Positions 1 through 17,925 of a stretch of 64,000 nucleotides of DNA are shown here, piece by piece. Numbering within the stretch: position 1 is the first letter of the stretch; every line of letters begins with the position of its first letter. Position numbers and translations under genes: made by a program. This DNA comes from an uncultured cyanobacterium (GTDB taxonomy: Bacteria; Cyanobacteriota; Cyanobacteriia; Cyanobacteriales; CAWCAG01), in assembly GCA_963793425.1 (NCBI GenBank), contig CAWCAG010000007.1, positions 672,001 through 736,000 on the forward strand, in the 5' to 3' direction. The notes under the pieces are model-generated. The model was given only the letters and a program-made list of their open reading frames with translations. It made no database searches and was not told the DNA's origin.

Positions 1-190
1 CAGACTGAGAAAAATCAACCATATGATCTCCTAGGCGCTCTGCATTTGCCCTAGCAATTTCCATCTCTTCTAAAGATAGTCCTTGAGGTTTAGCTTGAGC
101 AACATCAGGAAGAGAGTTGAGCTTTTTTTGTACAGGCTTAACAGCAGACTTAGAAGACTTTTTTTGGTGGAGGTGAGTTCGGGTACGCAT
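1..190 (-). CDS. 5' end of a further leader-containing (probably DUF4157) effector gene, unit A; runs off the window
   Basis: Hand translation from ATG (cat 188-190): MRTRTHLHQKKSSKSAVKPVQKKLNSLPDVAQAKPQGLSLEEMEIARANAERLGDHMVDFSQS, open to base 1; near-identical to the N-termini of 1708..3423 and 4236..6005; same AGAGGTTAGCT RBS. Confidence 0.9.
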   Translation of the reverse strand, partial: MRTRTHLHQKKSSKSAVKPVQKKLNSLPDVAQAKPQGLSLEEMEIARANAERLGDHMVDFSQS

Positions 191-1707: not shown

Positions 1708-3423
1708 TTATGCCCTTTCGTCTGCGATATTTCCCCATTCTCCGGGACTAACTTTTCCTGTAATTCCAGTGTGAGGGCCATCTATTACCTTAACAGTGCC
1801 ATTTAAAAGAGGTGTATGCCACTCTTGAATAATCTGTAATCGCGTACCAACCGGGAGAGCAATAGTTTGCATTGGTGCAGGAGGTGTTAATGTTACAGCC
1901 CCCTTAGTGATTTTTACATCTACAACGGGTAAATCTACTGTATCTGCACCAGTTGAAGTTTTTGAAGCATTCCACAGTTCTGCGGACTTCATAAATGTCG
2001 AAGATGGCACACCATCCGATACTTTAGATAGCGGAATTTTAGTGAAATTGCCTTGATCATCTGTTCGCCATCCCCATCGAACTGAACCATAATAAGTACC
2101 AGATTGCAATCCTTTTGTGGCTAAAGCAGTAGTTTCAAAAATTTGCCCTGACTCTTTTTCTGCTCTCACTAATTTTGGTGCGTCTTTTAATATTGCATCT
2201 TGGTGTTGAAGTTCCCCAGATTTATCTTGATAATGATATCCATGCTGTCCCCAACCAGGGCTTGTACTTGTATCGTCTAAAGATTTACTTGGCAATGAGT
2301 TCACTGGATAGATGGGATTATTATAATTTTTAACCCTATCAATCATAGTACCTTCATCAGTTTCACTGGTATTACTATCAACAGTAATTGCATCCTTAGA
2401 GTCAATGGCTCTATTTTTATAGAAGATGTCATTATTAATAAAGTGAGGCTTTTTGCTTTTAATTGATTTAACAGATTGCGTAAGTCCAATTAATTCGGCA
2501 TCAACGCTATTTCCTGGTTTAAACTTCAATTCAATCTCAGATCCTCTTAAACCACTAGGATTTGCCGGAGTAATCAAATCATACTTATCAGTGTCCCATT
2601 CTCCACCTAAAGTATCTACTTTACGCTGAATAGCTGCTTTAGAAAGTGAAGAAGCTCGCAGATGCGATCGCATCTGTAAAGCTGGAGACTCCCCTTTCTG
2701 AGTATCCGTACCTTTTTTCTGTACTGCCCCACCATTCTGCTGCACAACATGAGTCAACTCATGGGCAATCAATTCCTGTCCACCTTTGCTGCTAGGATCG
2801 TAAGCCCCTTGACGGAAAAAGACATCTTGCCCCATAGCAAAAGCCCTTGCTCCAATGGACTGATTAAGTTGATCTGATTGACTATCGGTATGGACGTTAA
2901 CGCCACTAAAATCTGCCCCAAAAGACTCTTCCATGGGGCCACGAATGTTGTCACTTAAAGGCTGTCCATTACCCCGTGATTGTTCAATGGAGGATTCTAA
3001 TTCTTCTCCTGCGGCTGTCTCTCCTCCTGCTGGCTGGCGTTGAATAGTAGATTCCGGTTTCATCTGGACGGCTTCATCTTCTTCGGGCAAAGCTTCCCGT
3101 TGCACCGAATTACCACTCTGCCCAGGAGAATTAATCTGCTTAACTACTTGTGCTGCGGTAGCGTCTGCTTCTTGTTCATATTTATCTCCTACTTCACCAA
3201 TAGTCAGCTTCGTTTGAATCGGTTGGGCTGGGGCAGACTGAGAAAAATCTACCATATGATCTCCCAGACGTTCTGCATTTTTCCGGCTGATCTCCATCTC
3301 CTCCAAAGACTGTCTTTGAGGTTTAGCTTGAACAGTGTCAGGAAGGGAGTTAAGCTTTCTTTGTATAGGTTTAACAGCAGATTTGGAAAAACCTTTTTTC
3401 TGGAGGTGAGTTCGACTACGCAT
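1708..3423 (-). CDS. DUF4157 (eCIS core domain) polymorphic effector, unit B; uncharacterised C-terminal domain plus possible SH3b-like tail
   Basis: GQPL..MEESFGADFSGVNVHTD..ARAFAMGQDVFF..YDP..ELIAHELTHVVQQ (HExxH) at ~2737-2968; QTKLTIGEVGDKYEQEAD motif; C-terminus unrelated to unit C. Confidence 0.9.
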   Translation of the reverse strand: MRSRTHLQKKGFSKSAVKPIQRKLNSLPDTVQAKPQRQSLEEMEISRKNAERLGDHMVDFSQSAPAQPIQTKLTIGEVGDKYEQEADATAAQVVKQINSPGQSGNSVQREALPEEDEAVQMKPESTIQRQPAGGETAAGEELESSIEQSRGNGQPLSDNIRGPMEESFGADFSGVNVHTDSQSDQLNQSIGARAFAMGQDVFFRQGAYDPSSKGGQELIAHELTHVVQQNGGAVQKKGTDTQKGESPALQMRSHLRASSLSKAAIQRKVDTLGGEWDTDKYDLITPANPSGLRGSEIELKFKPGNSVDAELIGLTQSVKSIKSKKPHFINNDIFYKNRAIDSKDAITVDSNTSETDEGTMIDRVKNYNNPIYPVNSLPSKSLDDTSTSPGWGQHGYHYQDKSGELQHQDAILKDAPKLVRAEKESGQIFETTALATKGLQSGTYYGSVRWGWRTDDQGNFTKIPLSKVSDGVPSSTFMKSAELWNASKTSTGADTVDLPVVDVKITKGAVTLTPPAPMQTIALPVGTRLQIIQEWHTPLLNGTVKVIDGPHTGITGKVSPGEWGNIADERA

Positions 3424-3627: not shown

Positions 3628-3642
3628 TAAGGATTTTCTTTA

Positions 3643-4239
3643 CTATTCAGAAGAGAGATAAAGGGCTTTAGTATCCGTTAGGCATGGACTTAGAGGGCTA
3701 GCACCTCCTGAAGGATCACTAGGTGCTTGACGATGGAGAGTTCCTATAACTTCAACTTCATGCTCCTTAAAACTATTAATTTCTTCTTGAGGTCTGCGTG
3801 CATCTTTATCCCAAACAGGGAAAAGAGAAACATGAGTGTTATCAGCCAATACAATTGAAACATGACCTACATAACGTGGTGTTCCTGTCGGTCTCATTCG
3901 CACATCATGTTCTACATATTTACCAACCAAGCGAACTTGTTGCCCGTCATAAACATCTAACTGTTCTAATTGATTGATCAATGGCAAGTTTTGACCTTGA
4001 GCAGAGGAATCTGGCAGTAATAATTCAGAGCGCGATGATTCCTCAGATACTGGCGAAGATGGTGCTTTTTCTTTGATTGGTAAAGAAAATTCGTCTTGGT
4101 TCATTTCAGTATTCTTGGTAGGAGTTTTAGTGGGTGAAGTTTGAGACAGTGATGATGTAGGTGAGGAGCAACTTGATAAATATAATCCAATTACTCCTAT
4201 AATCCACAAATAATTTAAAATAGCTGTTTCTAACTTCAT
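3643..4239 (-). CDS. Lipoprotein; putative immunity protein of effector unit C
   Basis: Hydrophobic signal with lipobox LSSC, Ser/Thr/Pro linker, compact beta-rich domain; start overlaps the effector stop by 4 nt (4236-4239). Confidence 0.7.
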   Translation of the reverse strand: MKLETAILNYLWIIGVIGLYLSSCSSPTSSLSQTSPTKTPTKNTEMNQDEFSLPIKEKAPSSPVSEESSRSELLLPDSSAQGQNLPLINQLEQLDVYDGQQVRLVGKYVEHDVRMRPTGTPRYVGHVSIVLADNTHVSLFPVWDKDARRPQEEINSFKEHEVEVIGTLHRQAPSDPSGGASPLSPCLTDTKALYLSSE

Positions 4240-6005
4240 TTATCTTGGGCTTGTTTTCTCACAGCAACCATTGAAGTAGGTGAATCTCCGTGTTGTTTAT
4301 GAACATCTTTATGTTCTTCATGAAAGGATTGTCCCTTTTTGCCTACACCATACATTTGGAAAACCCAATCTTTATTCTCTTCTTGGTAGTCACTAACAGA
4401 ATAATTTTCTAATGTTATGGTATCTGAACCACTCTTGATAGCAGCACCAGCCCAATGGAAATTCCAAGTTCCTACATCGGCTGGTTTATTAGGATGCTCT
4501 TTACCCCCTGTACTGATATGAAAAGCTTCACCAATTTGGGGGTCTGCATACATATTGATGCCTGCTTTTTTGTCAAAATCATCTTTAGCTTGAGGATCTA
4601 ACTTCTCATACTCTGCACGGGCTAAAACGTCAAGTTCAAAAGCTAATTGAGCCATTCCTCTACTTAGGTTGTTTTTCTTGACATCATCTTTTTCCTTGAT
4701 CCAATCTTGCTTTAACTTGTTGTAATCACTAAGTTTTTTATCAATAGTTTTGATATCTAACTTGCTTTCATATTGCGGTTTCCAAAACTCCCACCAAGCA
4801 CTTTCTTTACTGAAAAGGCCTTTAAACATTTTCACTTTTTGAATTTCCATCCAGTCATTGCCAGTTACGGTCTTTGTTTTACCGTCTTTGCTATATTTTG
4901 CACCAGGACTAGCATTTCCTTGTCCTGTTCCCTGATCCATACCGGAGACAGTTTTAGCCGATCGCCCACAATCAGCCCATAGCTCCATATCTGTGTCTTC
5001 TGTGTTGTTCTGTGTGTTGACAGGAACAACATCCACAACATCATGTCCGTTGCCACTTAAATCAGGAATTTGACCAGATTTCTTACCGGGTTTTAGCCCA
5101 ATTACAGAAGTTGCAGCCTTTAGTTGGTCACTAGCATCTTTGATCGAGTCTGGAGTAGCGTAGGCTGTTTGACCACCTACTGAACTATTTTGATGAACAC
5201 CCATTTTACCATCGTCAGAAGCACGAAAACCCTTGTAATTATGATATCGCTGAATACTGGTCTGAAGAGAGCCAGTGCCATTTTGTTGAACGACATGGGT
5301 TAATTCATGGGCAATTAATTCCTGTCCATCTTGGCTACTAGGATCGTAAGCACCTTGGCGGAAAAAGACATCTTGCCCTGTGGTAAAAGCCCGTGCTTGA
5401 ATTGACTTATTAAGTTGATCTGATTGACTATCTGTATGGACGGTAACGCCGCTAAAATCCACTCCAAAGGATTCTTCCATGGGGCCACGAATGTTGTCAC
5501 TTAAAGGCTGTCCATTACCCCGTGATTGTTCAATGGAGGATTCTAATTCTTCTCCTGGCTTACGTTGAAGAGTAGACTCCGGTTTCATCTGAAGTTCTTC
5601 TTCTTCTGGCAAAGCTTCGCGTTGTATAGTAGATTCTAACTTTGCTTGAAGAGGATTTTCTTCTTCTTCTGGTAAAGCTTCCCGTTGCACGGAACCTTGA
5701 GATGCGGGAGAATTAATCTGCTTAACTACTTGTGCTGCGGTTGCATCTGCTTCTTGTTCGTACTTGTCCCCCACCTCACCGATGGTAAGCTTAGTTTGAA
5801 TTGCTTGGGCTGGGGTAGACTGAGAAAAATCTACCATATGATCTCCCAGACGTTCTGCATTTTTCCGGCTGATCTCCATCTCTTCTAAAGATTGGCTTTG
5901 AGGTTTAGCTTGAACAGTGTCAGGAAGAGAGTTGAGCTTTTTTTGTACAGGCTTAACAGCAGACTTAGAAAACTTTTTTTGGTGGAGGTGAGTTCGGGTA
6001 CGCAT
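4236..6005 (-). CDS. DUF4157 (eCIS core domain) polymorphic effector, unit C; C-terminal putative Cys/His catalytic domain
   Basis: DUF4157 with AHELTHVVQQ; two QREALPEEE repeats; C-terminal motifs ADCG, WNFHWAG, TLENY. Confidence 0.9.
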   Translation of the reverse strand: MRTRTHLHQKKFSKSAVKPVQKKLNSLPDTVQAKPQSQSLEEMEISRKNAERLGDHMVDFSQSTPAQAIQTKLTIGEVGDKYEQEADATAAQVVKQINSPASQGSVQREALPEEEENPLQAKLESTIQREALPEEEELQMKPESTLQRKPGEELESSIEQSRGNGQPLSDNIRGPMEESFGVDFSGVTVHTDSQSDQLNKSIQARAFTTGQDVFFRQGAYDPSSQDGQELIAHELTHVVQQNGTGSLQTSIQRYHNYKGFRASDDGKMGVHQNSSVGGQTAYATPDSIKDASDQLKAATSVIGLKPGKKSGQIPDLSGNGHDVVDVVPVNTQNNTEDTDMELWADCGRSAKTVSGMDQGTGQGNASPGAKYSKDGKTKTVTGNDWMEIQKVKMFKGLFSKESAWWEFWKPQYESKLDIKTIDKKLSDYNKLKQDWIKEKDDVKKNNLSRGMAQLAFELDVLARAEYEKLDPQAKDDFDKKAGINMYADPQIGEAFHISTGGKEHPNKPADVGTWNFHWAGAAIKSGSDTITLENYSVSDYQEENKDWVFQMYGVGKKGQSFHEEHKDVHKQHGDSPTSMVAVRKQAQDK

Positions 6006-6868: not shown

Positions 6869-6879
6869 TAAAAGAGCTT

Positions 6880-7151
6880 ACCTTTGGAAGACGAACTGAA
6901 GAAAAGAAATTAATTTAGGCTGGATTGGTCATTTATCTTCACGATGGTAAGTTAGATTGGAGGGGTAGACTGAGAAAATAACCATATGATCCCAGACGTT
7001 CTGCATTTTTCCGGCTGATCTCCATCTCTTCCAAAGACAGTCTTTGAGGTTTAGCTTGAACAGTGTCAGGAAGGGAGTTAAGCTTTCTTTGTCTAGGTTT
7101 AACAGCAGACTTAGAAAAACTTTTTTTCTGGAGGTGAGTTCGGGTACGCAT
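6880..7151 (-). pseudogene. Degenerate effector leader (unit D), frameshifted, no DUF4157
   Basis: Leader intact to NAERLG, then a 2-nt deletion (GGGATCATATGG vs GGGAGATCATATGG) and further small deletions through the FSQSTP..LTI region. Confidence 0.75.
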
Positions 7152-7330
7152 AGCTAACCTCTGATTCTAATCTCAAATTGATTAATTCTTATTGTGACAT
7201 CTTCGTCTACTTTAGTTCATTATCTAGAAGTCTAATTGTTTAGTTATTGGTTGTTAATATAGCTAACCTCTGATTTTATTAACTATTATTGTGGCATCTC
7301 TTCTACTTTCATTCATTGTTTAAAGGTCGA
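7152..7330 (-). repeat. Tandem pair of the conserved effector upstream motif; the second copy has no gene
   Basis: agctaacctctgatt...attgtg.catc...ctactt..ttcatt occurs at 7152 and again at 7261; the second RBS is followed by ATA rather than ATG. Confidence 0.75.
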
Positions 7331-7337
7331 AATTATT

Positions 7338-7595: not shown

Positions 7596-7600
7596 CTTAT

Positions 7601-7637
7601 GGCTAATTGCTAATTGCTAGTTGCTAATGGCTAATAG
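7601..7637. repeat. Heptameric short tandem repeat (GCTAATT)n
   Basis: About 5 imperfect copies between convergent genes. Confidence 0.8.
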
Positions 7638-8090: not shown

Positions 8091-8263
8091 CTGCCAGGGG
8101 ATTTCTCCACAGGAATTACCTCGTGTGCATAGTTAATGCGTACTTTCGGTAGTGCAACCCTGGTAGGTTTCTTTTTTTTGAAATTCGGGCTATTATATCA
8201 GTCCGGAGCAGTTATTGGCTGTTTGCTAGAAATCAATGTACGGCTTGCTGTTGCTGTTAGGTA

Positions 8264-9631
8264 TCAGTCATCAGTTATAGAAGTTTTTATTGTTAAGACT
8301 TGGGGAGGGGTGGAATCTGGGGGATAGAGAAACTCGACGGTAACTAAGTCCTGTTCGCCAGGAGGTATAGTTATTGTGGCGAGGGGTTTTCCTTGTTGCC
8401 CCCGTTGTTGAACTAAATGATAATAATGACTGCTGACTATACCCGCTTCGTCCCGATAGCGGACTTTTACTGTTCCCCGGAAAAATACTTGTTTGGCTGG
8501 CGGTTGGAGGAATTGTAAGCCCTCGGCAATTTGGTCTTGTTTAAGGGGGGTTTGTAAGGCGATAGTGACGGTTTGGCTAGTCTCGCTGGGGTTATATAGA
8601 GGCAAATCGAGATTATACTGTACTCCATAGTTACCATGGGCTTTGTAAGCGGTATCAGGATAGCGGACTAAAAGAGGGGCGCTTTGACTTTGCCCAGTGC
8701 CGTAAGTTCCCCCTTCTAAGGTGCTTAAACCGTAGGAGATAGCCTTACCGGGGGTAGGGATGGTTAAAGCTGTAGAACCTGGTGAAGAGTCAGTTAAGGT
8801 TGCTTGCCATTGAGAACCTTGGGCTACTCCAGCTACTCTACCATATATAATCTGTCCGGATTCAGAATCTGGAGGAGTTGGGGCGCGATCGCGAGGAGTT
8901 GCAAGTTTACCTGTTACCAATAGTTGTTCCCATTCTGCTTTGCTAGGTGTTCGTTCCTTTCCTGCTTCATTAGTGGGGGCATACATAGCCAAGCTAGCAG
9001 CATAAACTTCCCCATCACTCTCAAGGCGCATATAGGTGGAACGACCATTAATAGGGGGTTCTAAGGTTTTTACGGGAATAGGTAAGTTTAACAGCATCGC
9101 CGTTTCCCCTGGGGGAATAGTTATTTGTTCGGGGAAAAGCTGTTGACGCTTCCCTCGTAAAATATCTTGCATAACTCTACTACCAGGCCCTGCATAGACA
9201 TTTCCCCGATTGTTTTCTACTAAGGCTGGGAGAGGAACAAAGGGGGCATCAGGTTGGCTTAAATAACTTGCTGCTTGCCAGATATTAATGGTTACTGGTG
9301 TGTCTTCGGTATTTTGGAGAATAATGCCTAAATAAAGAGTTCGTAAATCTCCTGGAGTTGGGGCTGTAGCGACGTGGTGGGCGAAAACATCAAAACGTCC
9401 TTGTAAAGGGAAATTTAAGTGGGCTTCTGAGGTTGCTTTATCATTAGGGTTAAAGGTGGAAAGCAAGATTCCTGGTTCAACTATTAATTCTGGACTGTTG
9501 CTATTAAAAACCGGGATATTATCTAACTGTCCAGGTAAGGGACGAACTTCTTGAGGCTGCACAATTTCTTGAGGAGTCGGAGTTTGAGCGATAAGTTGGG
9601 GAGTAGTAAGAAATGGTAAGAGGAGAAACAT
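8264..9631 (-). CDS. DUF3370 family protein
   Basis: VRPLPGQLD.IPVFNSNSPE...GILLSTF; HGNYGVQY; YPPDSTPPQVLT motifs. Confidence 0.85.
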   Translation of the reverse strand: MFLLLPFLTTPQLIAQTPTPQEIVQPQEVRPLPGQLDNIPVFNSNSPELIVEPGILLSTFNPNDKATSEAHLNFPLQGRFDVFAHHVATAPTPGDLRTLYLGIILQNTEDTPVTINIWQAASYLSQPDAPFVPLPALVENNRGNVYAGPGSRVMQDILRGKRQQLFPEQITIPPGETAMLLNLPIPVKTLEPPINGRSTYMRLESDGEVYAASLAMYAPTNEAGKERTPSKAEWEQLLVTGKLATPRDRAPTPPDSESGQIIYGRVAGVAQGSQWQATLTDSSPGSTALTIPTPGKAISYGLSTLEGGTYGTGQSQSAPLLVRYPDTAYKAHGNYGVQYNLDLPLYNPSETSQTVTIALQTPLKQDQIAEGLQFLQPPAKQVFFRGTVKVRYRDEAGIVSSHYYHLVQQRGQQGKPLATITIPPGEQDLVTVEFLYPPDSTPPQVLTIKTSITDD

Positions 9632-9646
9632 TGGGGTACTAAATTT

Positions 9647-10648
9647 TTAACCTAAAGTGATATTCCTTCTAAAATCATCTAATAAAAAGAAGTCTAAATC
9701 CTCAAAAGTTCCAGCATAAGTAACGGTTTCTTCATCAAAACCTTTTAAGTTAACGATATGTTTTTGAAATCTTTGTTCCGCTATGCCCATATCCGATAAA
9801 TGACTGTAGGTTGTACTGCCTAAAGCAATATCCAAGCCAATTTCTTTTGTGGCAGATTCTAGGCGAAAAGCTGCATTGACAGTATCTCCAATCGCTGTGT
9901 AATCTGGGCGATCGCCTCTGCCAGCATAGTTGCCTACCATAGCATAGCCAGTATTAATCCCCGCACCAATACGTAAAGGGAAAGGCAAGGGATATTGACT
10001 ATTGAGATAATTAGTCATTTTATTAAGATCGCTTACTGCCCGGAAGATTTGCACTACATCTTCTTTGTCAATTTCTTCTTGACGATGAAACCAAATTGCC
10101 ATTACTGCATCGCCAATATACTTATCTACCCAACTTCCAGAATGGCGAATAATATTTCCTGCATCACGAAACCAACTACCAATTAGTGAAGCGAGGATGT
10201 TTTCATCGATCTTTTGAGAAAGGACAGTAAAGTTGCGAATATCAACCACCATAACAGACATCAAACGCCGCACTACCATGGTGGAAGTTAGGGTTTCGCC
10301 GTCTTCTTTTTTGTTATCTTCGGCTTTGCTAGGATCGTTAGGATAATAAAATTCTAGTTCTGTTTGCCCAAAGGTTAAGCGATCGCTATTATGCAAAATA
10401 ACTGGAACACTGACCCGACGGCTATTGACAAAAGAACCATTTCTTGCTCCTAAATCAATTAAATAAAAGTCCCCCGCTTCTGTGCATTGCAACATAGCGT
10501 GGTTACGAGAAATCCAGCGATCAGGGATCACAAAATGGTTGTCGTCGCTGCGACCAACTGTCCAACAATTACCACCTACTAAGGGTAGATAGCGATCGCC
10601 AGTAACGGTATGTAAAAGTAAGTAAGGAGTGCGTCCGAGAGCCACCAC
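9647..10648 (-). CDS. cya1: FHA-domain class III adenylate cyclase (Synechocystis Cya1-like)
   Basis: N-terminal FHA (GR..ISRNHA..RNGSFVN); cyclase motifs VDIRNFT, KYIGDAVM, TAIGDTVNAAFRLES. Confidence 0.85.
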   Translation of the reverse strand: MVALGRTPYLLLHTVTGDRYLPLVGGNCWTVGRSDDNHFVIPDRWISRNHAMLQCTEAGDFYLIDLGARNGSFVNSRRVSVPVILHNSDRLTFGQTELEFYYPNDPSKAEDNKKEDGETLTSTMVVRRLMSVMVVDIRNFTVLSQKIDENILASLIGSWFRDAGNIIRHSGSWVDKYIGDAVMAIWFHRQEEIDKEDVVQIFRAVSDLNKMTNYLNSQYPLPFPLRIGAGINTGYAMVGNYAGRGDRPDYTAIGDTVNAAFRLESATKEIGLDIALGSTTYSHLSDMGIAEQRFQKHIVNLKGFDEETVTYAGTFEDLDFFLLDDFRRNITLG

Positions 10649-10751
10649 AGGTGTCCGATCGATGACGGGTTAAGTAGGTTTATCTTTGGATATCTTCTGG
10701 GGTTAGAGAAGCTATTCCGGAATCTTGTTCATCTTTACTTTGTAATTCGCC

Positions 10752-11489
10752 TTAAATGGTAGATGCTGCCACCCAAAATAGAGTATCTACAACAATTGTA
10801 CTCAATACTGCACCTCCAAATGCCCACCAACTAACTCTTAGTCTTTGCAAAGACCAAAGACCTACCCCCAATAATAAACTCACTAAGATAGCGGCACAGG
10901 TTAAACCCCAAGTATTTTGTACTTGCAAAATAGCGCTTTGGAAGATGGGCGCAACTAAATCTGGTTCCACTTGCATAACTTGTCGCCAGTAAGGTATTAA
11001 GCCTGTTATATAAAAGTATATATCAGTAATAGCTGTGCCAAATAAAGACCCTAGGTAGAATAAACTGCCAACGGTAGCTCGACCTCGCCACAGACACCAA
11101 AGAGCGAACGGTAAACCAATAGCTTCAATGGGTAAGTGAATCAGAGGTTCCCAACGCAACCAACCCCAATAAATTGAGCCAGCTAACCAACTCCAGCTAA
11201 ATCCAAGCAGCAAATCTCCCCAAACTTGAGTAGAGCGGTGTCGAGATAATTGCCAAGAAATAGTTAACCAACCTAATGTTAACAATAAACTGACCCAAGG
11301 TAGCTGACGGACTAAAGGGGCTTGGACAAAAACGGGTACAGAGACAAGGAAGGCAGAAGTCCAAAAAAACAACCACAGTTGGCTGTTTTCTTGATTCTCC
11401 CAGGCAGGAATTTCCACTAATTCTTGGTTTAAAGGTGATAAATAATTTAGGGCGGAGGAGGGGCGAGGGAACCAGTTAAGCTTAAACAA
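10752..11489 (-). CDS. DUF3120 family membrane protein
   Basis: FLVSVPVFVQAPLVR..PW; WLAGSIYWGWLRWEPLIHLPIEA. Confidence 0.8.
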   Translation of the reverse strand: MFKLNWFPRPSSALNYLSPLNQELVEIPAWENQENSQLWLFFWTSAFLVSVPVFVQAPLVRQLPWVSLLLTLGWLTISWQLSRHRSTQVWGDLLLGFSWSWLAGSIYWGWLRWEPLIHLPIEAIGLPFALWCLWRGRATVGSLFYLGSLFGTAITDIYFYITGLIPYWRQVMQVEPDLVAPIFQSAILQVQNTWGLTCAAILVSLLLGVGLWSLQRLRVSWWAFGGAVLSTIVVDTLFWVAASTI

Positions 11490-11732
11490 AATAACTTTAA
11501 TTTTTTTTACTTATCTTTACATATCTACAAAGATAACACCATCGATACCCCTAGGGGGCATATTGATGAGAGTAATATTATTTTGGCGTAAAATCAAGCG
11601 GAAAGGCAAGTACCGATAGAGTATAAAGGTTTTTAGTTATGGTTAGTTATTAATAAATTATTCTCATTTAGTCTTCCAACTTTCTTAACCTTTAGCCCTT
11701 AAACTGAAATTTTTCACCCGCCAGCCTAAGAT

Positions 11733-12704
11733 ATGAACTCAAAAAAACAAAAGTGGTTCAAATTTGCTAGCACAGCAATCCTTGCTCTACTTTCACTTCT
11801 AATCCTAGAGTCTTTATTTGCCAGTCAATCCTTAAGCATCTCAGAAGCATCTACACAAACAGCTAGCCAAATAAATATCTTCCAAGCTGTAGTTTTGGGA
11901 ATGGTGCAAGGTTTAACAGAATTTTTACCCATAAGCAGTACTGCCCATTTGAAAGTTGTACCTATCTTCCTCGGTTGGGGTGATCCTGGAGTTGCTTACA
12001 CCGCCATCATTCAACTAGGTAGCATTGCCGCAGTAGTTTATTACTTTTGGGAAGATTTGACCCAAGTAACTTTAGGAACCTGGCAAGCTATCCGCAAGTC
12101 TGACTATCAATCTCAGGATTTCCGTATTGCCTTGGGTATCGCCATTGGCACTATACCTATTGTTATTTTAGGTTTAGCAATGAAAGCTTTTATTCCTGAC
12201 TTAGATAACTCTCCATTAAGAAGTATGAGCGCGATCGCCATTGCTTCTATTGTGATGGGATTACTTTTGGGGGTTGCAGAACGTCTAGGAGCGCGTCAAA
12301 GAGATTTTGATAACCTCACCACCAAAGATGGGATTTTAATGGGATTAGCCCAAGCCCTAGCCCTAATTCCGGGGGTTTCTCGTTCTGGTTCTACCATTAC
12401 GGCTGGTTTATTCCTCGGTTTAGAAAGAGCAACCGCCGCTCGTTTTTCTTTTCTTTTGGGCATCCCCGCTATTACCTTAGCAGGACTAGTAGAACTCAAG
12501 GATTTGTTGAGTGAAGAAGTAACTAATAGTGAATTGTTACCTTTAATCGTCGGTTTAATTTCTGCTGCTATTTTCTCCTACCTAGCAATTTTTGGTTTAA
12601 TTCGGTATTTACAACAACAAGATACTTGGGTATTTGTTTGGTATCGTTTAGGTTTCGGTCTAATTATCTTATTAGGAGTAACATTAGGTTGGTTTACTGG
12701 TTAA
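11733..12704 (+). CDS. uppP: Undecaprenyl-diphosphate phosphatase
   Basis: VQGLTEFLPISSTAHL and PGVSRSGSTI BacA motifs. Confidence 0.95.
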   Translation: MNSKKQKWFKFASTAILALLSLLILESLFASQSLSISEASTQTASQINIFQAVVLGMVQGLTEFLPISSTAHLKVVPIFLGWGDPGVAYTAIIQLGSIAAVVYYFWEDLTQVTLGTWQAIRKSDYQSQDFRIALGIAIGTIPIVILGLAMKAFIPDLDNSPLRSMSAIAIASIVMGLLLGVAERLGARQRDFDNLTTKDGILMGLAQALALIPGVSRSGSTITAGLFLGLERATAARFSFLLGIPAITLAGLVELKDLLSEEVTNSELLPLIVGLISAAIFSYLAIFGLIRYLQQQDTWVFVWYRLGFGLIILLGVTLGWFTG

Positions 12705-12764
12705 TGGGCGACCCAGTTAAGAATCTGGTTTGTCAAGCATACTTAGGAAACGGGTCGCCCCTAC
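12705..12764 (-). repeat. 60-nt GTAG-initiated palindromic REP-like element, copy 1
   Basis: Minus strand GTAG-GGGCGACCC...GGGTCGCCC; 46/60 identical by hand to 51795-51854. Confidence 0.7.
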
Positions 12765-12891
12765 ATCTAAATTAATCAGTAACCATTGATAACTGTAAAA
12801 AGTGCCTCTATTCAGTTGTCCTGTAAATCCGGATACTGAGATTTTATGGGAGTATTATCTTGAAATCTGAGCATAAATTTGGGAGATAAAA

Positions 12892-13965
12892 GTGTACGGT
12901 TTCCTCCAATCTCTCGGCATTGCTAACCCTCATGGCACTGGCTGGCTGGCTGTAATTTTCACCTTCACCTTGGCTTGGTTTGTCACCAAAGGCTTTATTC
13001 CTTCAGTACGCTCTTTTGCTTTACAAGTTGGTTGGGCAGATCAACCTAATGCCAGAAGATTAAACAAAGAACCCTTACCCAACGTCGGGGGTTTAACTAT
13101 CTATGCTGGAGTAATTGCGGCGCTGGTTTTAGCAACTTCCTTAAGACCGATTGTTATTGAAGGAGTATTAGCAGAAGTACTAACTATTCTCTTGGGGGGT
13201 TCAATATTAGTTTTAGTCGGTTTCATTGATGACCAATTTAGTTTACCCCCATCGTTTCGCCTCTTTACCCAAATTATTACTGCCTTATTGTTGGTAGCCA
13301 GCGATATTCAAATTGAAACGCCCTTGGGTACACCCCTAGATCCCCTCTTTTCCACCTTATTAACAGTGTTGTGGGTGGTAGGCATCACCAATGCCATTAA
13401 CTTAATGGACGGTATGGATGGTTTAGCAGGGGGAGTTAGTTTTATTACAGCGATGAGTTTATTAGCGGTTTCGGCTCAATTTGAAGAAAGGGCCGCAGCC
13501 ACTTTACTTTTAGCAGCATTAGGAGGAGCAGCATTAGGATTTTTGCGCCACAATTTTAATCCTTCTAAAATTATTATGGGGGATGCGGGGGCCTACTTTT
13601 TCGGTTATGTCTTAGCAGCAGCGAGTATTTTAGGAAACTTGAAAGTAACCACTGTCTTTTCTCTTGTACCTACTCTTTCCTTTCTCTTGTTGCCAGTAAT
13701 GGATACAACTCAGGTTTTTGTTCGACGTTTAATGGCAGGAAAAAACCCCTTAAGCACCCCCGGCAAAGATCACCTCCACCACCGTCTTTTAGATTGGGGA
13801 CTATCCCAACGCCACGCCACGATTATCCTTTGGACTATTACCCTACTCTCCAATACTTTAGCAATGGCCCTACAAGGTATGACTCCTTTAATGATTCAAG
13901 TTGCCCTTGCTAGTATTATTATGCTGTTGAGTTTTACAGTTTGGCAGAAGGTTAGGAATGGCTAG
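12892..13965 (+). CDS. MraY/WecA/TagO-family undecaprenyl-phosphate GlcNAc-1-phosphate transferase
   Basis: GFIDD, NAINLMDGMDGLA, HNFNPSKIIMGDAG, DHLHHRL motifs. Confidence 0.9.
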   Translation: MYGFLQSLGIANPHGTGWLAVIFTFTLAWFVTKGFIPSVRSFALQVGWADQPNARRLNKEPLPNVGGLTIYAGVIAALVLATSLRPIVIEGVLAEVLTILLGGSILVLVGFIDDQFSLPPSFRLFTQIITALLLVASDIQIETPLGTPLDPLFSTLLTVLWVVGITNAINLMDGMDGLAGGVSFITAMSLLAVSAQFEERAAATLLLAALGGAALGFLRHNFNPSKIIMGDAGAYFFGYVLAAASILGNLKVTTVFSLVPTLSFLLLPVMDTTQVFVRRLMAGKNPLSTPGKDHLHHRLLDWGLSQRHATIILWTITLLSNTLAMALQGMTPLMIQVALASIIMLLSFTVWQKVRNG

Positions 13966-14016
13966 TAGCTAGTGGCTAATTGCTAATTGCTAATTGCTAA
14001 TTGCTAATTGCTAATT
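13961..14016. repeat. STRR (GCTAATT)n
   Basis: About 8 heptamer copies. Confidence 0.85.
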
Positions 14017-14060
14017 ATTATATCTTCCTAGCTCCCTAGCTCCCCATCACCCATCACCCA

Positions 14061-14696
14061 TCACCCATCACGAAGTGACTTAAACAGAATCGCTGCTTGA
14101 GTGCGATCGCGCAAATTTAAGCGGTTGAGAATACTATTAACATGATTTTTTACCGTACGTTCAGAAATGTAGAGAGTTTCGGCAATTTCACGATTACTTT
14201 GCCCTGCGGCGATTAAACTTAGTACTTCTTGTTCTCTTGGAGTCAGTTTATTTAATTCTGGCGGGGGTTCCGATTCTATTTTAGGGGGAGAAGCCATAAC
14301 TTTTTCAAATAATCCTGGCCCAAGGTGAGTATAGCCTTTATGAACCGAACGTATAGCTTGGGCTAATTCTTCTGAGGGAGTATCCTTTAGCAAATAGCCC
14401 TTTGCCCCATATTGCATTGCTTGGCTAACATACTCATCATCATCAAAAGTTGTTAGTACAACAATTTTAATTTCTGGGGCTTGTTGTTGCAAAGCACGAG
14501 TAGCCGCAACCCCGTCCATTACTGGCATCCGCATATCCATCAGCACCACATCTGGTTGCAAAGCAAGGGCTTTTTCTACTCCCTCTTGACCATTTTCCGC
14601 TTGCCCAACAATCTCTAAGTCAGGCTTATTTTGCAACAAGCTACTTAATCCTTCCCGGACGAGATATTGGTCGTCAATTAGTAAAACCTTAATCAT
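14061..14696 (-). CDS. NarL/LuxR-family response regulator
   Basis: REC domain (DD, VVLMDMRMP, LTTFD, GYLLK) plus LuxR HTH (LTPREQEVL..SNREIA..TVKNH). Confidence 0.95.
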   Translation of the reverse strand: MIKVLLIDDQYLVREGLSSLLQNKPDLEIVGQAENGQEGVEKALALQPDVVLMDMRMPVMDGVAATRALQQQAPEIKIVVLTTFDDDEYVSQAMQYGAKGYLLKDTPSEELAQAIRSVHKGYTHLGPGLFEKVMASPPKIESEPPPELNKLTPREQEVLSLIAAGQSNREIAETLYISERTVKNHVNSILNRLNLRDRTQAAILFKSLRDG

Positions 14697-14731
14697 ACCA
14701 AATCCTGTTTAAATAGCATAAGTTATCAGTG

Positions 14732-14775
14732 AGGGTAGGGAGTAGGGAGTAGGGAGTAGGGAGTAGGGAGTAGGG
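14732..14775. repeat. STRR (GGGAGTA)n
   Basis: About 6 heptamer copies. Confidence 0.85.
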
Positions 14776-14854
14776 TTTGAAAACTTTTTCGGTGAATTTT
14801 GTATTCGGTTTTTAATAACCGGATTTGGGATCATTTATCATTTGCTGTAACAAA

Positions 14855-16141
14855 TTATTCTGCTAATAAGGGAATAGCTACTTGGATTTTACTACCTGCG
14901 CCGGGTTTGCTGATGGTTTGGAACTTTCCGCCTAGGGCTTCTGTACGTTCGCGCATTCCTTTTAAACCAAATCCGGTGGTATTTTGTTCTAAGTTGAAAC
15001 CTTGCCCATTATCTTTAATTATTAAGCTAATTATGTTTTCTTTTTCTTCTAGCTTAAGCCAAACTTGAGTTGCTTGAGCGTGTTTAGAGATATTGGTTAA
15101 GGCTTCTTGAACAATTCGATATAAAGCGATGGTAACTTCTCCTGATAAGGAAGAGTGCAAAGTGATTTGCAAGTTAATAGGTATCTGGTTTGTTTGCTCA
15201 AACTCTTTAGCTAAATCCTTTAAAGCAACCTCCAAAGTTTTGCCCTGGAGAGGATTGGTACGCAAAGTTGCCACCGACTGACGTACATTCCTTAAGGCTT
15301 CTTTGCCTAAACTCCTAGCCCTTTGTAAATAATCCTCAGCTTGAGTAGAATCTTGAGAGAGGAACATGGCGACATTTTCTAGTTGGATGCTCTGCGCCGT
15401 GAGAAAATGCCCCACAGAGTCGTGAATTTCCCGTGCAATGCGGTTCCTTTCTTGTAAAGTAGCTTGGTTTTCAATCAGCAGCGCATATTGTCGCAGGCGG
15501 CGATTAGCTAAAGTTAGCTTCTGACGACTTTGTTTTTCTCCTAACAAAGCCCCAACTAGCAGCACAACAAAAACTAAAACTAAGGCAAAAAGCAGTGCAG
15601 AATTAAGGATTTGGTTGGTTAGAAAACTTTGTTGAAACTCTGGGGGCAATCTACGCGCACCTGGAGGTAATATGGGTCTTAATAGAGGAACTCCGAAAGG
15701 ACGAATCCCTGAAAAAGAGACAATGAACATTAAAAGGAAGGAAGCATAGGCAGATAGGGCAACGATAAAGCGCCCACTCCAAGGAAACAACAAACAGCCA
15801 CGAATTACTACTACCAGCAGCAGCGGTGGAAAAACGTTTTGCCCTTTGCCTACTAATAAAATTGCTAACCAACTTAAAGTAAATCCTAAAACAGTGTAGA
15901 GAATTTGCCAGAGTCGAGAGTTTCCCGGCAAGCGTAACCCAAAGCATCCCAAAGCAAGAATACTCGCTGATGCAGCCAAAGGAAAGCCTGGTGATAGCAA
16001 ATGTTTTCTAGCACCAGGAGGCAATGGCTGAGGCGGCTGCAAATGAGTTAAGGGTGATAATGCAGCTAAGACTGCAATACCTAGAAGAACCCACTCAAGG
16101 TAAAGTAGAATCTGGAAAGGATGGTCTTTGCTATCAGACAT
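14855..16141 (-). CDS. Membrane sensor histidine kinase (HisKA_3 type)
   Basis: Several TM helices; ERNRIAREIHDSVGH; QEALTNISKHA; DNGQGF; GFGLKGMRER. Confidence 0.95.
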   Translation of the reverse strand: MSDSKDHPFQILLYLEWVLLGIAVLAALSPLTHLQPPQPLPPGARKHLLSPGFPLAASASILALGCFGLRLPGNSRLWQILYTVLGFTLSWLAILLVGKGQNVFPPLLLVVVIRGCLLFPWSGRFIVALSAYASFLLMFIVSFSGIRPFGVPLLRPILPPGARRLPPEFQQSFLTNQILNSALLFALVLVFVVLLVGALLGEKQSRQKLTLANRRLRQYALLIENQATLQERNRIAREIHDSVGHFLTAQSIQLENVAMFLSQDSTQAEDYLQRARSLGKEALRNVRQSVATLRTNPLQGKTLEVALKDLAKEFEQTNQIPINLQITLHSSLSGEVTIALYRIVQEALTNISKHAQATQVWLKLEEKENIISLIIKDNGQGFNLEQNTTGFGLKGMRERTEALGGKFQTISKPGAGSKIQVAIPLLAE

Positions 16142-16202
16142 AAGTACCTAGATAGAACAACTCTGGTTACTAAAAAACCGTGATTAAATTAGAGCTAAAA
16201 CT

Positions 16203-16251
16203 AGACTTATAGTTAATGAAATAAAGTAGACAATAATGCCAAGATTATAAT
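16203..16251 (+). promoter_or_regulatory. Copy of the effector upstream motif ahead of the C39-like effector
   Basis: agacttatagttAATGAAatAAAGTAGAcaataATGcCAagATtataat matches the array motif. Confidence 0.65.
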
Positions 16252-16299
16252 GATTAGGTCTTGGTAATGTTTAATGTTTAATGATAAATGGTATTAGTT

Positions 16300-17925
16300 A
16301 TGGGTAACCACCGGACTTACCTCCAGAAAAAATCCTTCTCCAAATCCTCCACTCAACCTCCACAAAATAAGCCCCAGTTGAACTCCACTCTAAGGCAGCC
16401 CGTACCGACAAGGCAGTCTTTATCTTTAGAGGAAATGGAAATTAGTAGGAAGAATGCAGAGCGTCTTGGAGATCATATCGTTGATTTCTCTCAATCTGCT
16501 CCCACTCCAGCAATGCAAACTAAGCTTGCTATCGAGCAAGCCGGGGATAAGCAACAAATTCAGCGATTCATTGATTTAGGGGCGGTATGGGATAAAGTTA
16601 CCGATGTTGCTGAAGATGTTTGGGATGCTCTTACCGATACAGAAACCAAGAAGGAGAATAGTAATGCTGCAACTACTACCGAAGAAGTAGATAAGAAAAA
16701 GGAAAAGAAATCAACTCCTTTACCTCCTCAAGATGTTGTTGTCCCCAAACCTAGTCATAAAAAGAATCCTGGCTTGCCAGACAAACCGGAGTTAGAACAT
16801 CCTGAATTCTCTGCCCTTGTGGAAGAAATGGCACAGATGGAGCAAAATCCCTTAGTAGTTGAAAAGAAACACAAAGAAGAAATTGGTGAGGCGCGTACAG
16901 AGCGGGTAGAGAAGATTGCCGAATTGCGCGGACGCATTGCTACTTTAGGAACAGCAATACCTGATGTTGAAGCGACTCAAATCGAGAATGCACAAGCTTA
17001 TCTTTATCGCCGCTTAGCCCCCCTCGTCCCCTATTTTGGGCAGATGGCTAATACCAATATGCTCACGAAAACAAATAAGAAAGGCGGAAAGGGGTGGGAT
17101 CGAACCTGCAATGTAACTGTTCCGGCGATGGTATTGCAAGGGATAGGTAAAACTAAAGATGATTATGTAGGTTCAAAACAGTTACTTGAGAATATATTTG
17201 CAGCCCTGGAAGGCAAGTATAAAGAACGTAAACTATATGATCCTGCAGCGGATTTTGATTCTTTACGTTTGCCTGATTTTATGGCTTTGGTTGGCATCGC
17301 TAAACATATGTCAGGAGGTGGTGAAGCGAATGATGAGACATTTGTCGCAGCAGTATCAGAAGCTCGCAAAAAAGCAGCTAATAAAACAACCCATCATGCA
17401 ACTATGATGTATTTAATTGAGCAATTTGGAGGGCAACATCAAAAGTATAGTGTTTATGCAAAAGAATTAGATCAAATTGGTGGAGCGCAGAAGGCTTATA
17501 CTAAAGCACAATTGCGAGGAGAAAACCCAGAAAAAGGGCGAAAAAAATACAACGAAATCAATGAGGAGTTGCAGCAATATAGTGAGGGAGAGGAAAGAGA
17601 TAAAGCTTTCAAGAAACTTAAGAAAAGTGATCAAAAAATCTATCAAACTCTCTGGAAATATGACCAATTGAATCAGGAGAAAGCTGAGGAACTCTTACCT
17701 GCTAATACTTACCGTGATGCTGTCCTCAAAAAAATTAATCCTTTGTTAGATGGCGGGGCGCAAATTTTAGTAGGGATGGAAGGACATTTCTTACGTTTAG
17801 ATGGGTTAGATGAAAACACCGTTCAAGTTGATGATCCAGGGGAAAAAGGATTTAAGGATTTACAAGTTACTTGGGAACAAGCAAGGGGTTTTGGTTACTT
17901 TAAAGGTTTCTGGGCGATTACATAA
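16300..17925 (+). CDS. Leader-containing effector with C39-like (papain-fold) peptidase domain, no DUF4157
   Basis: N-terminus RTYLQKKSFSKS..SLEEMEISRKNAERLGDHIVDFSQS..MQTKL..IQR; PYFGQ, TCNVT.PAMVL, GHFLRL.G, VDDPG; start 16300 chosen by alignment with the array leaders (ORF track gives 16288). Confidence 0.75.
   Translation: MGNHRTYLQKKSFSKSSTQPPQNKPQLNSTLRQPVPTRQSLSLEEMEISRKNAERLGDHIVDFSQSAPTPAMQTKLAIEQAGDKQQIQRFIDLGAVWDKVTDVAEDVWDALTDTETKKENSNAATTTEEVDKKKEKKSTPLPPQDVVVPKPSHKKNPGLPDKPELEHPEFSALVEEMAQMEQNPLVVEKKHKEEIGEARTERVEKIAELRGRIATLGTAIPDVEATQIENAQAYLYRRLAPLVPYFGQMANTNMLTKTNKKGGKGWDRTCNVTVPAMVLQGIGKTKDDYVGSKQLLENIFAALEGKYKERKLYDPAADFDSLRLPDFMALVGIAKHMSGGGEANDETFVAAVSEARKKAANKTTHHATMMYLIEQFGGQHQKYSVYAKELDQIGGAQKAYTKAQLRGENPEKGRKKYNEINEELQQYSEGEERDKAFKKLKKSDQKIYQTLWKYDQLNQEKAEELLPANTYRDAVLKKINPLLDGGAQILVGMEGHFLRLDGLDENTVQVDDPGEKGFKDLQVTWEQARGFGYFKGFWAIT

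Follow-up and report, generated by a model that had tools for sequence, protein, structure and literature searches.

The window, a 64-kb stretch of cyanobacterial DNA, carries an array of DUF4157 toxin genes on its minus strand and, further along on the plus strand, a gene at 16300 that had been read, from the sequence alone, as opening with the same N-terminal leader. That sequence-only reading took the leader rather than DUF4157 to be the cargo tag of an injection system (CIS), and we asked how the leader is built, whether it is bound to DUF4157 and what would best explain its sharing. A six-frame motif scan found five leader copies within the window, and together with a leader profile it confirmed that the 16300 protein shares its leader with the DUF4157 toxins at 1-7151 (minus strand). 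The distance had been given as 9 kb; from 7151 to 16288 the gap is 9.1 kb, and the strands are opposed as stated. The array comprises:

1..190, minus strand: 5´ end (63 leader codons) of a 276-aa gene made of leader, box and DUF4157 only, which crosses the left window edge; leader copy at 29-70 (motif scan)
1708..3423, minus strand: 571-aa toxin with leader, box, DUF4157 (PF13699) and an unknown C-terminal domain; leader copy at 3262-3303 (motif scan)
3643..4239, minus strand: 198-aa lipoprotein-like ORF that overlaps the stop of the 589-aa gene (position and translation)
4236..6005, minus strand: 589-aa toxin with leader, box, DUF4157 (PF13699) and an unknown C-terminal domain; leader copy at 5844-5885 (motif scan)
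6939..7151, minus strand: 70-aa remnant with the leader intact to ..NAERLG, after which the frame is lost (profile E 1e-24); leader copy at 6990-7031 (motif scan)

A 16-residue leader core, SLEEMEISRKNAERLG, is the same in four of the five copies, and the copy at the window edge has two substitutions in it, which matches the earlier statement that one unit (A) differed. DUF4157 (PF13699, currently named eCIS_core in Pfam) was matched at residues 155-232 of the 571-aa protein (E 6.8e-32) and at residues 167-244 of the 589-aa protein (E 1.3e-32). The gene at the left edge is whole at C7:671360-672190 of this genome (G000), and the corresponding array of the sister species (G027) ends with an orthologous 273-aa gene of leader and DUF4157 only; the 571-aa toxin cassette is missing from that array. 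The remnant stops right after ...NAERLGSY. The 198-aa ORF, whose translation reads as an N-terminal hydrophobic stretch plus a Cys, matched no family in Pfam or NCBIfam and is kept beside the orthologous toxin in G027; it may be an immunity protein. Neither the toxins and candidate immunity ORFs nor the Pvc16-like proteins received a name from NCBIfam. We also noted turnover of the cassettes, seen as the extra cassette in G000 relative to G027, as remnants and as one leader-deleted paralogue.

The probable effector gene at 16300

The plus-strand gene and the divergently transcribed genes beside it have the following features:

14061-14696, minus strand: NarL/GerE-type response regulator (ORF list)
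14855-16141, minus strand: divergently transcribed histidine kinase (ORF list)
16288/16300-16570, plus strand: leader copy found by the six-frame motif scan
16300..17925, plus strand: gene for the leader plus a putative papain-like effector (ORF list)
16300..16497, plus strand: genus-specific leader (profile matches, AF2, composition, selection)
16426..16461, plus strand: short helix, residues 47-58, the sole predicted secondary structure in the leader (DSSP on AF2)
16498..16566, plus strand: remnant box (..MQTKLAIEQAGDK..) and IQR junction (16558-16566), from comparison with P0002
16765..17922, plus strand: C-terminal effector domain with a predicted papain-like fold (AF2, invariant residues, VIA)
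17107-17109, 17785-17787 and 17830-17835, plus strand: candidate triad C274, H500 and D515/D516 (invariance)

The ORF opens at 16288 and encodes 545 aa, and residue numbers follow this ORF; the true start is probably Met5 at 16300 (541 aa), because the orthologues P0002 and P0012 begin at the equivalent position. P0002, of 580 aa, is syntenic in G027. Past the leader, the protein had been read as going to IQR and then to a different enzyme domain with no DUF4157, and our results agree, the domain being predicted as papain-like with candidate Cys, His and Asp residues. No Pfam family (E≤0.1) or NCBIfam family was found for the 545-aa protein. DUF4157, including its HExxH motif, had no Pfam match in the whole protein (E≤0.1) or in its first 104 aa (E≤10), and our own DUF4157 profile found nothing in the protein even at E≤100. 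AF2 modeled residues 160-545 with pLDDT mostly >90, and the top rows of a VIA wide search with this model were all papain-like Cys peptidases, at modest Z of 8-9.4 (2btw, Z 9.4 over 174 aligned residues at rmsd 3.9; 6mpz, Z 9.3, 136 aligned, rmsd 2.7; 5xe8, Z 9.2, 129 aligned, rmsd 2.4). Foldseek against the PDB returned no match at E≤0.001, and only the VIA wide search yielded a consistent fold class. Across 29 sequences, C274, H500, D515 and D516 never vary. If the leader is a cargo-loading sequence (see below), the protein would be a leader-tagged papain-like cysteine hydrolase effector that has lost DUF4157 and most of the box.

The box, KLxIG..GDKYEQEAD, commonly precedes DUF4157 across many phyla, and half of it is deleted in the 545-aa gene; P0002 has the full ..GDQYEQEAD.. 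box at this place, with ~35 extra residues, and both P0002 and P0012 retain what the window copy has lost. This bears on how far the leader extends. Residues 1 to ~65 stand as genus-specific, but the terminal QTKL...GDK, which the sequence-only reading had counted as leader, is the start of the widespread box. The variable N-region ends in [IVL]QR at the IQR column in 25 of 27 full-length homologues. A GNxAxxRLL-type N-terminal motif, taken from distant homologues of the effector domain, was tried as a DUF4157-wide feature and dropped, with 2/89 ORFs matching, both spuriously.

Build, selection and range of the leader

In the leader, a basic Q/S/P-rich stretch is followed by a conserved core, SLEEMEISRKNAERLGDHIVDFSQS. 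Its length of ~65 aa lies within about 50-70 aa, and AF2 predicts it to be disordered: in the 545-aa protein, pLDDT stays below 50 at residues 1-45 and 57-149 and is about 46-50 for the helix at 47-58. An equivalent helix is predicted at residues 40-54 of the 276-aa protein (pLDDT <60), and AF2 gave no confident docking of the leader helix onto DUF4157 in the 276-aa protein or onto the effector domain in the 545-aa protein. The part before the helix has a net charge of +7 and a mean hydropathy of -1.39 in the 545-aa leader, and ranges from +4 to +9 and from -1.0 to -1.9 across the seven leaders scored. The idea that the helix is a degenerate DUF4157 N-terminus came from P0022, where part of a true DUF4157 is present (E 0.011), and was rejected since two leaders searched against Pfam by hmmscan had no match at E≤10.

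The core of the 545-aa copy matches those of the 571- and 589-aa copies at 24 of 25 residues, with pS of 0.81 (12/14.8) and pN of 0.017; against the C5 copies, pS is 0.5-1.0 and pN 0.08-0.13. Because the residues are near-identical while synonymous sites are near saturation, these comparisons indicate that the leader peptide is under strong purifying selection. Duplication within the array is recent, the cores of the 571- and 589-aa genes being 97% identical at the nucleotide level, and the cores of the two C5 leader copies are 100% identical. All leader copies in G000 directly follow the start codon, and the match begins at residue 1-7 in 12/12 full-length cluster hits, the other two of the 14 being N-terminally truncated fragments.

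A profile built from seven copies found 12 ORFs in G000 at E<1e-5 (best 1e-46), so that chance is no explanation for the match. The leader had been put forward as a handle for finding the effector set by an HMM search of the genome and its relatives, and it works as such: in G000 it recovers 12-14 genes or remnants, in G027 eight. Among the 151 genomes of the order that were searched, the leader was found in two, both of one genus, and not in the other 149; among 1.84e9 proteins, it occurs in 14 clusters. The claim that it is separable from DUF4157 also stands, as the two assort independently in G000 and G027. Five leader genes of G000 have DUF4157, six are without it and two are remnants, and the leader is missing from four of the nine DUF4157 genes; DUF4157 is present in 3/8 leader genes of G027 and in five of the 14 cluster representatives. 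The same toxin is found with and without DUF4157: P0011 has the C-terminal toxin domain of the window 589-aa gene without DUF4157, and P0020, P0024 and P0038 join DUF4157 to the papain-like domain that the 545-aa protein has without it.

The toxin-like proteins that begin with the leader form a polymorphic set. Domains fused to it are DUF4157 plus an unknown domain, CHAT, Peptidase_M15_4 and the papain-like domain, and in relatives also M91 and calpain. The CHAT, M15 and TPR/PG_binding sequences sat in alignment A1, so that their strong scores there arise by construction; with an independent seven-sequence profile, E was 2.9e-8 for CHAT, 1.2e-4 for M15 and 0.11 for TPR/PG_binding. The CHAT leader protein keeps a vestige of DUF4157 (i-E 3.4e-5, 18-sequence search). 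The sister genus (G059) is without this leader and has a different one of its own, common to four proteins (42-57% identity), of which three have DUF4157 and one does not. Their genes adjoin a Cis15-type ATPase and genes for a spike tip, Phage_base_V, gp25 and tube. G059 repeats the design, a shared leader with optional DUF4157, inside a canonical injection-system locus.

What the leader might do

G000 has CIS genes for one sheath, three tubes, TAC, two Pvc16_N proteins, gp25, Baseplate_J, Cis12/Cis13-like and VgrG-like proteins and PAAR, dispersed over at least four loci, as well as four paralogous WHD+AAA ATPases of Cis15 type, for which NCBIfam gave only generic AAA matches below cut-off. 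At 80 loci in many phyla, members of the ATPase family show 41-66% identity (best tblastn segment), and homologues of the G000 ATPases have CIS structural genes within 10 kb in 68 of the 80 loci and DUF4157 genes in 56. We put at roughly 55% the probability that the ~65-aa leader is a system-specific cargo-loading sequence of the genus's CIS. This reading proceeds by analogy, from the fusion of the leader to an eCIS marker domain, its predicted disorder, its system-specific distribution and the presence of a CIS with Cis15-type ATPases. By analogy with AlgoCIS and PVC, the leader would be recognised by one of the four ATPases, which would unfold the cargo and then feed it into the tube lumen. 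DUF4157, placed between leader and toxin, would be optional and probably serve as a peptidase for release or maturation, as predicted by Zhang et al. (2012), acting in cis or possibly in trans from the protein of leader and DUF4157 only; the conserved [IVL]QR junctions could be processing sites.

Several results go against the leader as a loading tag. Most eCIS effectors known so far are encoded no more than ten genes from the operon (PMC11297309), and such placement at or near a CIS operon is not the case for the leader genes of the window: the nearest structural CIS genes on the same contig are >600 kb away, and other modules are on other contigs. Only one leader gene (C7:57504-59145) comes within about 15 kb of the sheath/tube cluster, and a frameshift in an A8 run splits its leader. 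The four ATPases each adjoin an effector-like gene, and these lack the leader save for one weak, diverged copy (E 0.11, independent profile). The co-occurrence of leader and CIS comes from two related genomes and so has no statistical weight, and a complex prediction of the full-length ATPase C5:2115884-2117956 with the leader, which scored 0.00 (mark 0.32), weighs neither way.

Conservation of the ATPase across phyla would also be fitted better by a conserved element than by a genus-specific one, and such an element exists in the box (KLxIG..D.YEQEAD..A..V). Alone or with DUF4157, the box could be what the CIS recognises, with the leader serving in the choice among the four ATPase paralogues, in control of stability or translation, or in binding a chaperone or immunity factor, and with the 545-aa protein, most of its box gone, poorly loaded or the product of a decaying gene. 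The box is found ahead of the domain in 37 of 89 DUF4157 ORFs that adjoin Cis15-type ATPases in many phyla, compared with a background of 6/1371 ORFs, and also in three ORFs without DUF4157; the ATPase-adjacent effector genes of G000 have it and, the weak copy apart, not the leader; and P0002 and P0012 keep it. However, the leader core is under strong selection in precisely the box-less 545-aa gene, whose effector domain appears intact, with invariant candidate catalytic residues and a confidently predicted fold. In G059, it is once more the extreme N-terminus that the four locus-encoded proteins have in common, and the requirement described for AlgoCIS is for the whole NTD. We consider recognition through the box unlikely.

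It is a little less probable again that the leader is functional but unconnected with CIS loading, serving another export route, subcellular targeting (e.g., to thylakoid-anchored structures) or as an inactivating pro-peptide. The distance of the window genes from CIS genes would suit such a role, as would the lipoprotein-like candidate immunity genes by some cargo, which suggest periplasm-acting toxins. The first 37-41 residues of seven leaders have a mean hydropathy of -1.0 to -1.9, with no hydrophobic h-region of the Sec/Tat kind found, and so do not look like Sec/Tat signals. Double-glycine (C39/PCAT) leaders end in a GG, GA or GS cleavage site a few residues past conserved hydrophobic positions; here the alignment reads ..RLGDH.. 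after the helix, with no double glycine. Also against this reading, AF2 docks the helix on neither DUF4157 nor the effector domain. Protection of the producer itself has been raised as a role for N-terminal modules (Geller 2021, PMC8213781), but DUF4157, with an odds ratio of 2614 for eCIS loci (PMC8213781), is present in about half of the leader genes. The shared N-terminus might, finally, be nothing but the trace of polymorphic-toxin cassettes that recently duplicated or underwent gene conversion, and serve as a recombination handle with no peptide function. The near-identity of the array copies and of the C5 copies at the nucleotide level (97% and 100%) and the visible turnover of cassettes are what this would produce. 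For the distant copies it is contradicted, because synonymous change is high and the peptide is kept, both when the 545-aa gene is set against the array copies (pS 0.81, 24/25 residues) and in the C5 comparison; we regard duplication alone as very improbable.

The loading function of the leader could also be one part of a three-part address, in which the genus-specific leader, evolving fast, picks among the four Cis15-type loaders, the box is a universal AAA+ handle and [IVL]QR marks DUF4157 cleavage sites, cut in cis or, in cargo that has no DUF4157 of its own (the 545-aa protein, for example), in trans. The 276-aa gene at the left edge (273-aa in the sister species) would then encode a co-packaged "maturase" acting in trans. 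This is a decidedly speculative and improbable scheme. If it were true, DUF4157 would gain a defined substrate motif, and eCIS cargo N-termini would be partly conserved across phyla, against the current statement that such conservation is lacking.

Relation to known systems

That PVC effectors load through N-terminal leaders, as the sequence-only reading had stated, is established: disordered N-terminal signals of 50-70 aa are described for PVC cargo (PMC11495950). For AlgoCIS, the NTD and Alg15 are reported to be required for loading and DUF4157 and the CTD to be dispensable (bioRxiv 10.64898/2026.05.27.728243). The claim of a new effector-loading signal therefore holds for the sequence family and not for the principle, which was already published for PVC and AlgoCIS; the finding extends a concept in print (since 2026 for AlgoCIS) and opens none.

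As described, the PVC/Afp signal peptides recognised by Pvc15 resemble the leader in being N-terminal extensions of 50-70 aa whose disorder is inferred from low pLDDT, and in being shared in homology groups among payloads (PMC11495950). They are necessary for loading and transferable, properties whose counterpart here is a prediction. The payloads of that account have no DUF4157, and their genes follow the operon directly; Pvc15 has D1 and D2 AAA domains, whereas the ATPases here have one AAA domain and an N-terminal winged-helix domain (Pfam). Similar in design are Cgo1 and Cgo2 of AlgoCIS (Algoriphagus machipongonensis), likened to our proteins by architecture and description, with a disordered NTD, an optional DUF4157 and a variable C-terminal effector. 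In the published description of AlgoCIS, as here, NTDs resemble each other within a single system but not across systems, and the need for the AAA+ protein Alg15 has its parallel in the Cis15-type AAA+ genes of G000. Unlike the AlgoCIS cargo described, DUF4157-less cargo is natural here and the family has 12-14 members rather than two; also unlike AlgoCIS, the cargo genes are scattered, the CIS is spread across four or more loci and the ATPase has four paralogues, all known from genes alone.

The PVC-metallopeptidase (DUF4157) toxins outlined by Zhang et al. (2012; PMC3482391) likewise join a constant N-terminal part to variable C-terminal toxins, occur as multiple paralogues per genome, frequently without an immunity gene, and are found in free-living cyanobacteria too. 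DUF4157 was predicted there to be a releasing peptidase and is the constant marker, whereas the constant marker here is the upstream leader, which persists without the peptidase. In Anabaena, Alr3311 and Alr3312 of the thylakoid-anchored CIS are cyanobacterial DUF4157 proteins found with the particles and proposed as lumen cargo (PMC8894136); the likeness is one of description, and they are encoded within the CIS cluster, unlike the window genes.

If the leader is the loading tag, the genus would offer a clean natural data set on CIS cargo recognition, with a tag defined by sequence and not merely by composition, about twelve cargo that bear it and differ widely in their effector domains, and natural variants without DUF4157, the box or both. 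The full effector repertoire would then be listable despite the scattered genes, which methods based on distance from an operon would miss. The cross-phylum box, the [IVL]QR junctions and the four ATPase-effector pairs may inform the study of DUF4157 more generally than the leader does.

A regulatory link between the effector gene and the CIS was considered and set aside: the response regulator shares 35% identity with its GerE-type counterpart in the sheath/tube locus, which is ordinary at family level, and the kinases are unrelated. The kinase/regulator pair (14061..16141) keeps its place beside the effector gene in G027.

Leader copies and their conservation

The leader, a ~65-aa N-terminal stretch common to toxin-like proteins, occurs five times in the window, four times on the minus strand at the left end and once on the plus strand:

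29-70, minus: opens a 276-aa gene continuing beyond the window
3262-3303, minus: opens a 571-aa gene (1708-3423) with PF13699 (DUF4157, now eCIS_core)
5844-5885, minus: opens a 589-aa gene (4236-6005) with PF13699 (DUF4157, now eCIS_core)
6990-7031, minus: opens a 70-aa remnant (6939-7151)
16288/16300-16570, plus: opens a 545-aa ORF at 16288-17925

Orthologues of the last ORF begin at the position of 16300, making this its more likely start codon. The ORF matched no Pfam family at E<=0.1 and showed no trace of DUF4157 with a purpose-built profile, confirming the sequence-only reading that it carries the leader of the array toxins without DUF4157. The 16-residue leader core was also as described there, identical in four copies and with two substitutions in the copy at the window edge. 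A seven-copy leader profile matched 12 ORFs of the genome (G000, whose contigs are cited as C1, C5, C7 and C9) at E<1e-5, one at 1.2e-4 and one, doubtful, at 0.11.

Across 25 core codons, the 545-aa gene differs from the 571- and 589-aa genes at one amino acid and at ~12 of 14.8 synonymous sites (pN 0.017, pS 0.81). The peptide is therefore maintained by selection and not homogenised through gene conversion. Recent duplication is confined to the adjacent array copies (97% nucleotide identity) and two C5 copies (100%). The genes at C5:1653367-1654536 and C5:1504850-1505953 have 100% identical leader cores, nearly identical N-terminal ~190 residues and differing C-termini, each with a hydrophobic stretch, a pattern consistent with a recent exchange of cassettes downstream of a constant head.

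Compared with its counterpart in the sister-species genome G027 (L032:13600-18100), the toxin array (window 1-7151) contains one more cassette, that of the 571-aa gene with two ORFs downstream, and a leader remnant; in both species a gene for leader plus DUF4157 only terminates the array (276 aa in G000, 273 aa in G027). A small CxxCxxCC (PF03692) protein lies within the effector array on the minus strand, both in the window (373-990) and in the contractile injection system (CIS) locus of a sister-genus genome, G059 (L114:4100-4597), hinting at an accessory or immunity role. Elsewhere in the window (29449-34627, 43207-48175 and 61017-62819), reading of the translations suggests large, possibly secreted repeat proteins ending in CHAT-like regions and an outer-membrane transporter-like protein, which appear unrelated to the leader family.

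In the AlphaFold2 model of the 545-aa protein (numbered from 16288), pLDDT is below 50 at residues 1-45 and 57-149, and one short helix is predicted, at 47-58. The equivalent helix (40-54) of the 276-aa protein is of low confidence and undocked from the well-predicted DUF4157. The stretch preceding the helix is hydrophilic, with a net charge of +4 to +9 in the seven leaders scored, and is unlike a Sec/Tat signal; no double-glycine site was found at the leader end by sequence reading.

Modular composition of the leader proteins

Leader genes in G000 fall into two sets:

With DUF4157 (five): three in or at the edge of the window, C5:228814, C7:57504
Full-length without DUF4157 (six): the 545-aa gene, C5:1653367, C5:1504850, C5:1674081, C5:299318 (CHAT-domain protein), C9:259444 (Peptidase_M15_4 protein)

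There are two leader remnants in addition, and four of the nine DUF4157 matches in the genome lack the leader. DUF4157 is present in 3/8 leader genes of G027 and in the representatives of 5/14 leader clusters detected in a set of 1.84 billion proteins. The same toxin domain also occurs both ways: the database protein P0011 joins the leader, the box described below and the C-terminal domain of the 589-aa toxin without DUF4157, and the 545-aa protein's C-terminal domain accompanies DUF4157 in three of 30 homologues (P0020, P0024, P0038) and stands without it in all others. An 18-residue DUF4157 vestige in the CHAT protein (i-E 3.4e-5, small search) and weaker ones in three C5 proteins (E 0.03-0.2) suggest loss by internal deletion. 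These natural experiments, read from sequence, uphold the earlier claim that the leader is separable from DUF4157.

A frameshift in a tract of eight A interrupts the leader gene closest to the sheath cluster (C7:57504-59145). A paralogue, C7:901612-903228, is 96.8% identical to this gene over 532 nt and keeps the same 5´ untranslated sequence; the entire leader and box are deleted, leaving no start codon ahead of DUF4157.

Residues 160-545 of the 545-aa protein have a confident predicted fold, and four residues, C274, H500, D515 and D516, do not vary among 29 homologues drawn from cyanobacteria and other phyla. Foldseek returned nothing significant for the model. In a structure search of 48,161 representative chains, the top rows were only papain-like cysteine peptidases (Z 8-9.4; Alr0975, C39 domains of PCAT/ComA, staphopain, PeiR, UfSP and SpeB), modest fold evidence for a putative papain-like cysteine hydrolase.

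The leader as first described is composite: residues 1-~65 are genus-specific, and its QTKL...GDK end is the start of a multi-phylum box, KLxIG..GDKYEQEAD..A..V. At 80 loci (L033-L112), the box precedes DUF4157 in 37 of the 89 DUF4157 ORFs adjoining Cis15-type ATPases, in many phyla (median spacing 59 residues), as against 6/1371 background ORFs; three further ORFs near these ATPases have it without DUF4157. A CxC...CxxC motif is found in 30 of the 89. Cargo N-termini of extracellular CIS (eCIS) thus seem to be conserved in part across phyla. Most of the box is gone from the 545-aa gene (truncated copy, 16510-16545) and is retained in its syntenic G027 orthologue P0002 (580 aa) and in P0012.

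Immediately before the effector domain, 25 of 27 full-length homologues from various phyla carry [IVL]QR irrespective of their N-terminus (16558-16566 in the window); the other two have INR and INA, and two more rows, truncated at the N-terminus, fall outside the 27. Counted over the first 300 residues in 14 proteins of the family, the motif is ~10x enriched (28 occurrences in 4104 aa; background 0.64 per 1000 in 2554 long ORFs). Several sites each are also present in 1708-3423 and 4236-6005. Speculatively, [IVL]QR marks module borders, and the sites could be candidate DUF4157 cleavage sites; Zhang et al. 2012 (PMC3482391) predicted that DUF4157 is a releasing peptidase. In the literature searched, in part as incomplete texts, leader, box and [IVL]QR junctions are undescribed, though an alignment in the Extended Data of the AlgoCIS preprint could already show the box.

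Injection machinery and the proposed role of the leader

Instead of a single operon, the CIS genes of G000 occupy at least four separate loci, and four WHD+AAA ATPase paralogues (46-51% identical) each have an effector-like gene directly beside them:

C7:39200-47800: tail-assembly chaperone, three gp19 tubes, sheath, terminators (two Pvc16_N)
C9:197700-201700 (~198-202 kb): baseplate wedge, with gp25, Baseplate_J, Cis12- and Cis13-like genes
C5:331752-332549: VgrG-like gene, alone
C5:586717-586869: PAAR match, alone, with in-frame TAA
C5:134954-136885, C7:299127-301160, C1:150942-152744, C5:2115884-2117956: WHD+AAA (Cis15-type) ATPases

The ATPase neighbours are a 690-aa and a 1646-aa DUF4157 protein, box proteins including an Ntox16 toxin, and a TPR/PG_binding protein with a diverged leader. 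Within 10 kb of ATPase homologues, CIS structural genes occur at 68/80 loci and DUF4157 genes at 56/80. At least one of the two is present at 75/80 (the five with neither are contigs of 3.4-12 kb), and on this gene neighbourhood the ATPases are assigned as the Cis15/Afp15-type loaders. With several loaders in the genome, each might handle its own class of cargo N-termini.

An N-terminal, predicted-disordered, selected and system-specific peptide thus heads polymorphic toxins independently of DUF4157, in a genome with CIS and loader ATPases. By analogy, a loader ATPase would recognise the leader, and the cargo would then be unfolded and packed into the tube. Such loading has been demonstrated in the PVC system (signal peptides and Pvc15; PMC11495950) and in AlgoCIS (NTD and Alg15; bioRxiv 10.64898/2026.05.27.728243). 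The AlgoCIS loading sequence is the closest precedent; PVC signal peptides and PVC-metallopeptidase polymorphic toxins come next. Against a loading role, the leader genes in the window are distant from every CIS gene, effectors adjoining the ATPases do not have the genus-specific leader, and a frameshift disrupts the sole leader gene close to the sheath cluster. That the ATPase is so highly conserved also fits better with a conserved handle, the box, than with a genus-specific leader. The co-occurrence of leader and CIS is drawn from two related genomes, and the one ATPase-leader complex prediction gave no verdict. In Danov et al. 2024 (PMC11297309), an N-terminal 'eCIS signal peptide' is handled as a feature distinct from DUF4157, with the suggestion that DUF4157 may act in cis or in trans. 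The leader family is real, selected and genus-specific and, as a putative CIS cargo signal, would belong to an already known kind.

A different leader in the sister genus

Two genomes out of a sample of 151 from the order contain the genus-specific part: G000 and the sole other genome of its genus. It is absent from G059, the one other genome of the family, which has a CIS and DUF4157 proteins. The G059 CIS locus encodes a Cis15-type ATPase, CIS_spike_tip, Phage_base_V, gp25 and CIS_tube, and a different ~70-residue N-terminal leader is common to four proteins encoded there (42-57% identity; L114, G059:C136:3001-12000, and L115, G059:C83): DUF4157+WHH, DUF4157 alone, DUF4157+NS_2 endonuclease and a 293-aa protein. 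Three thus carry DUF4157, two of them also with a WHH or NS_2 nuclease domain; the 293-aa protein has no Pfam family, DUF4157 included. The design of a system-specific leader with optional DUF4157 is independently replicated here, in a canonical locus. A SUKH immunity gene accompanies the DUF4157+WHH nuclease.
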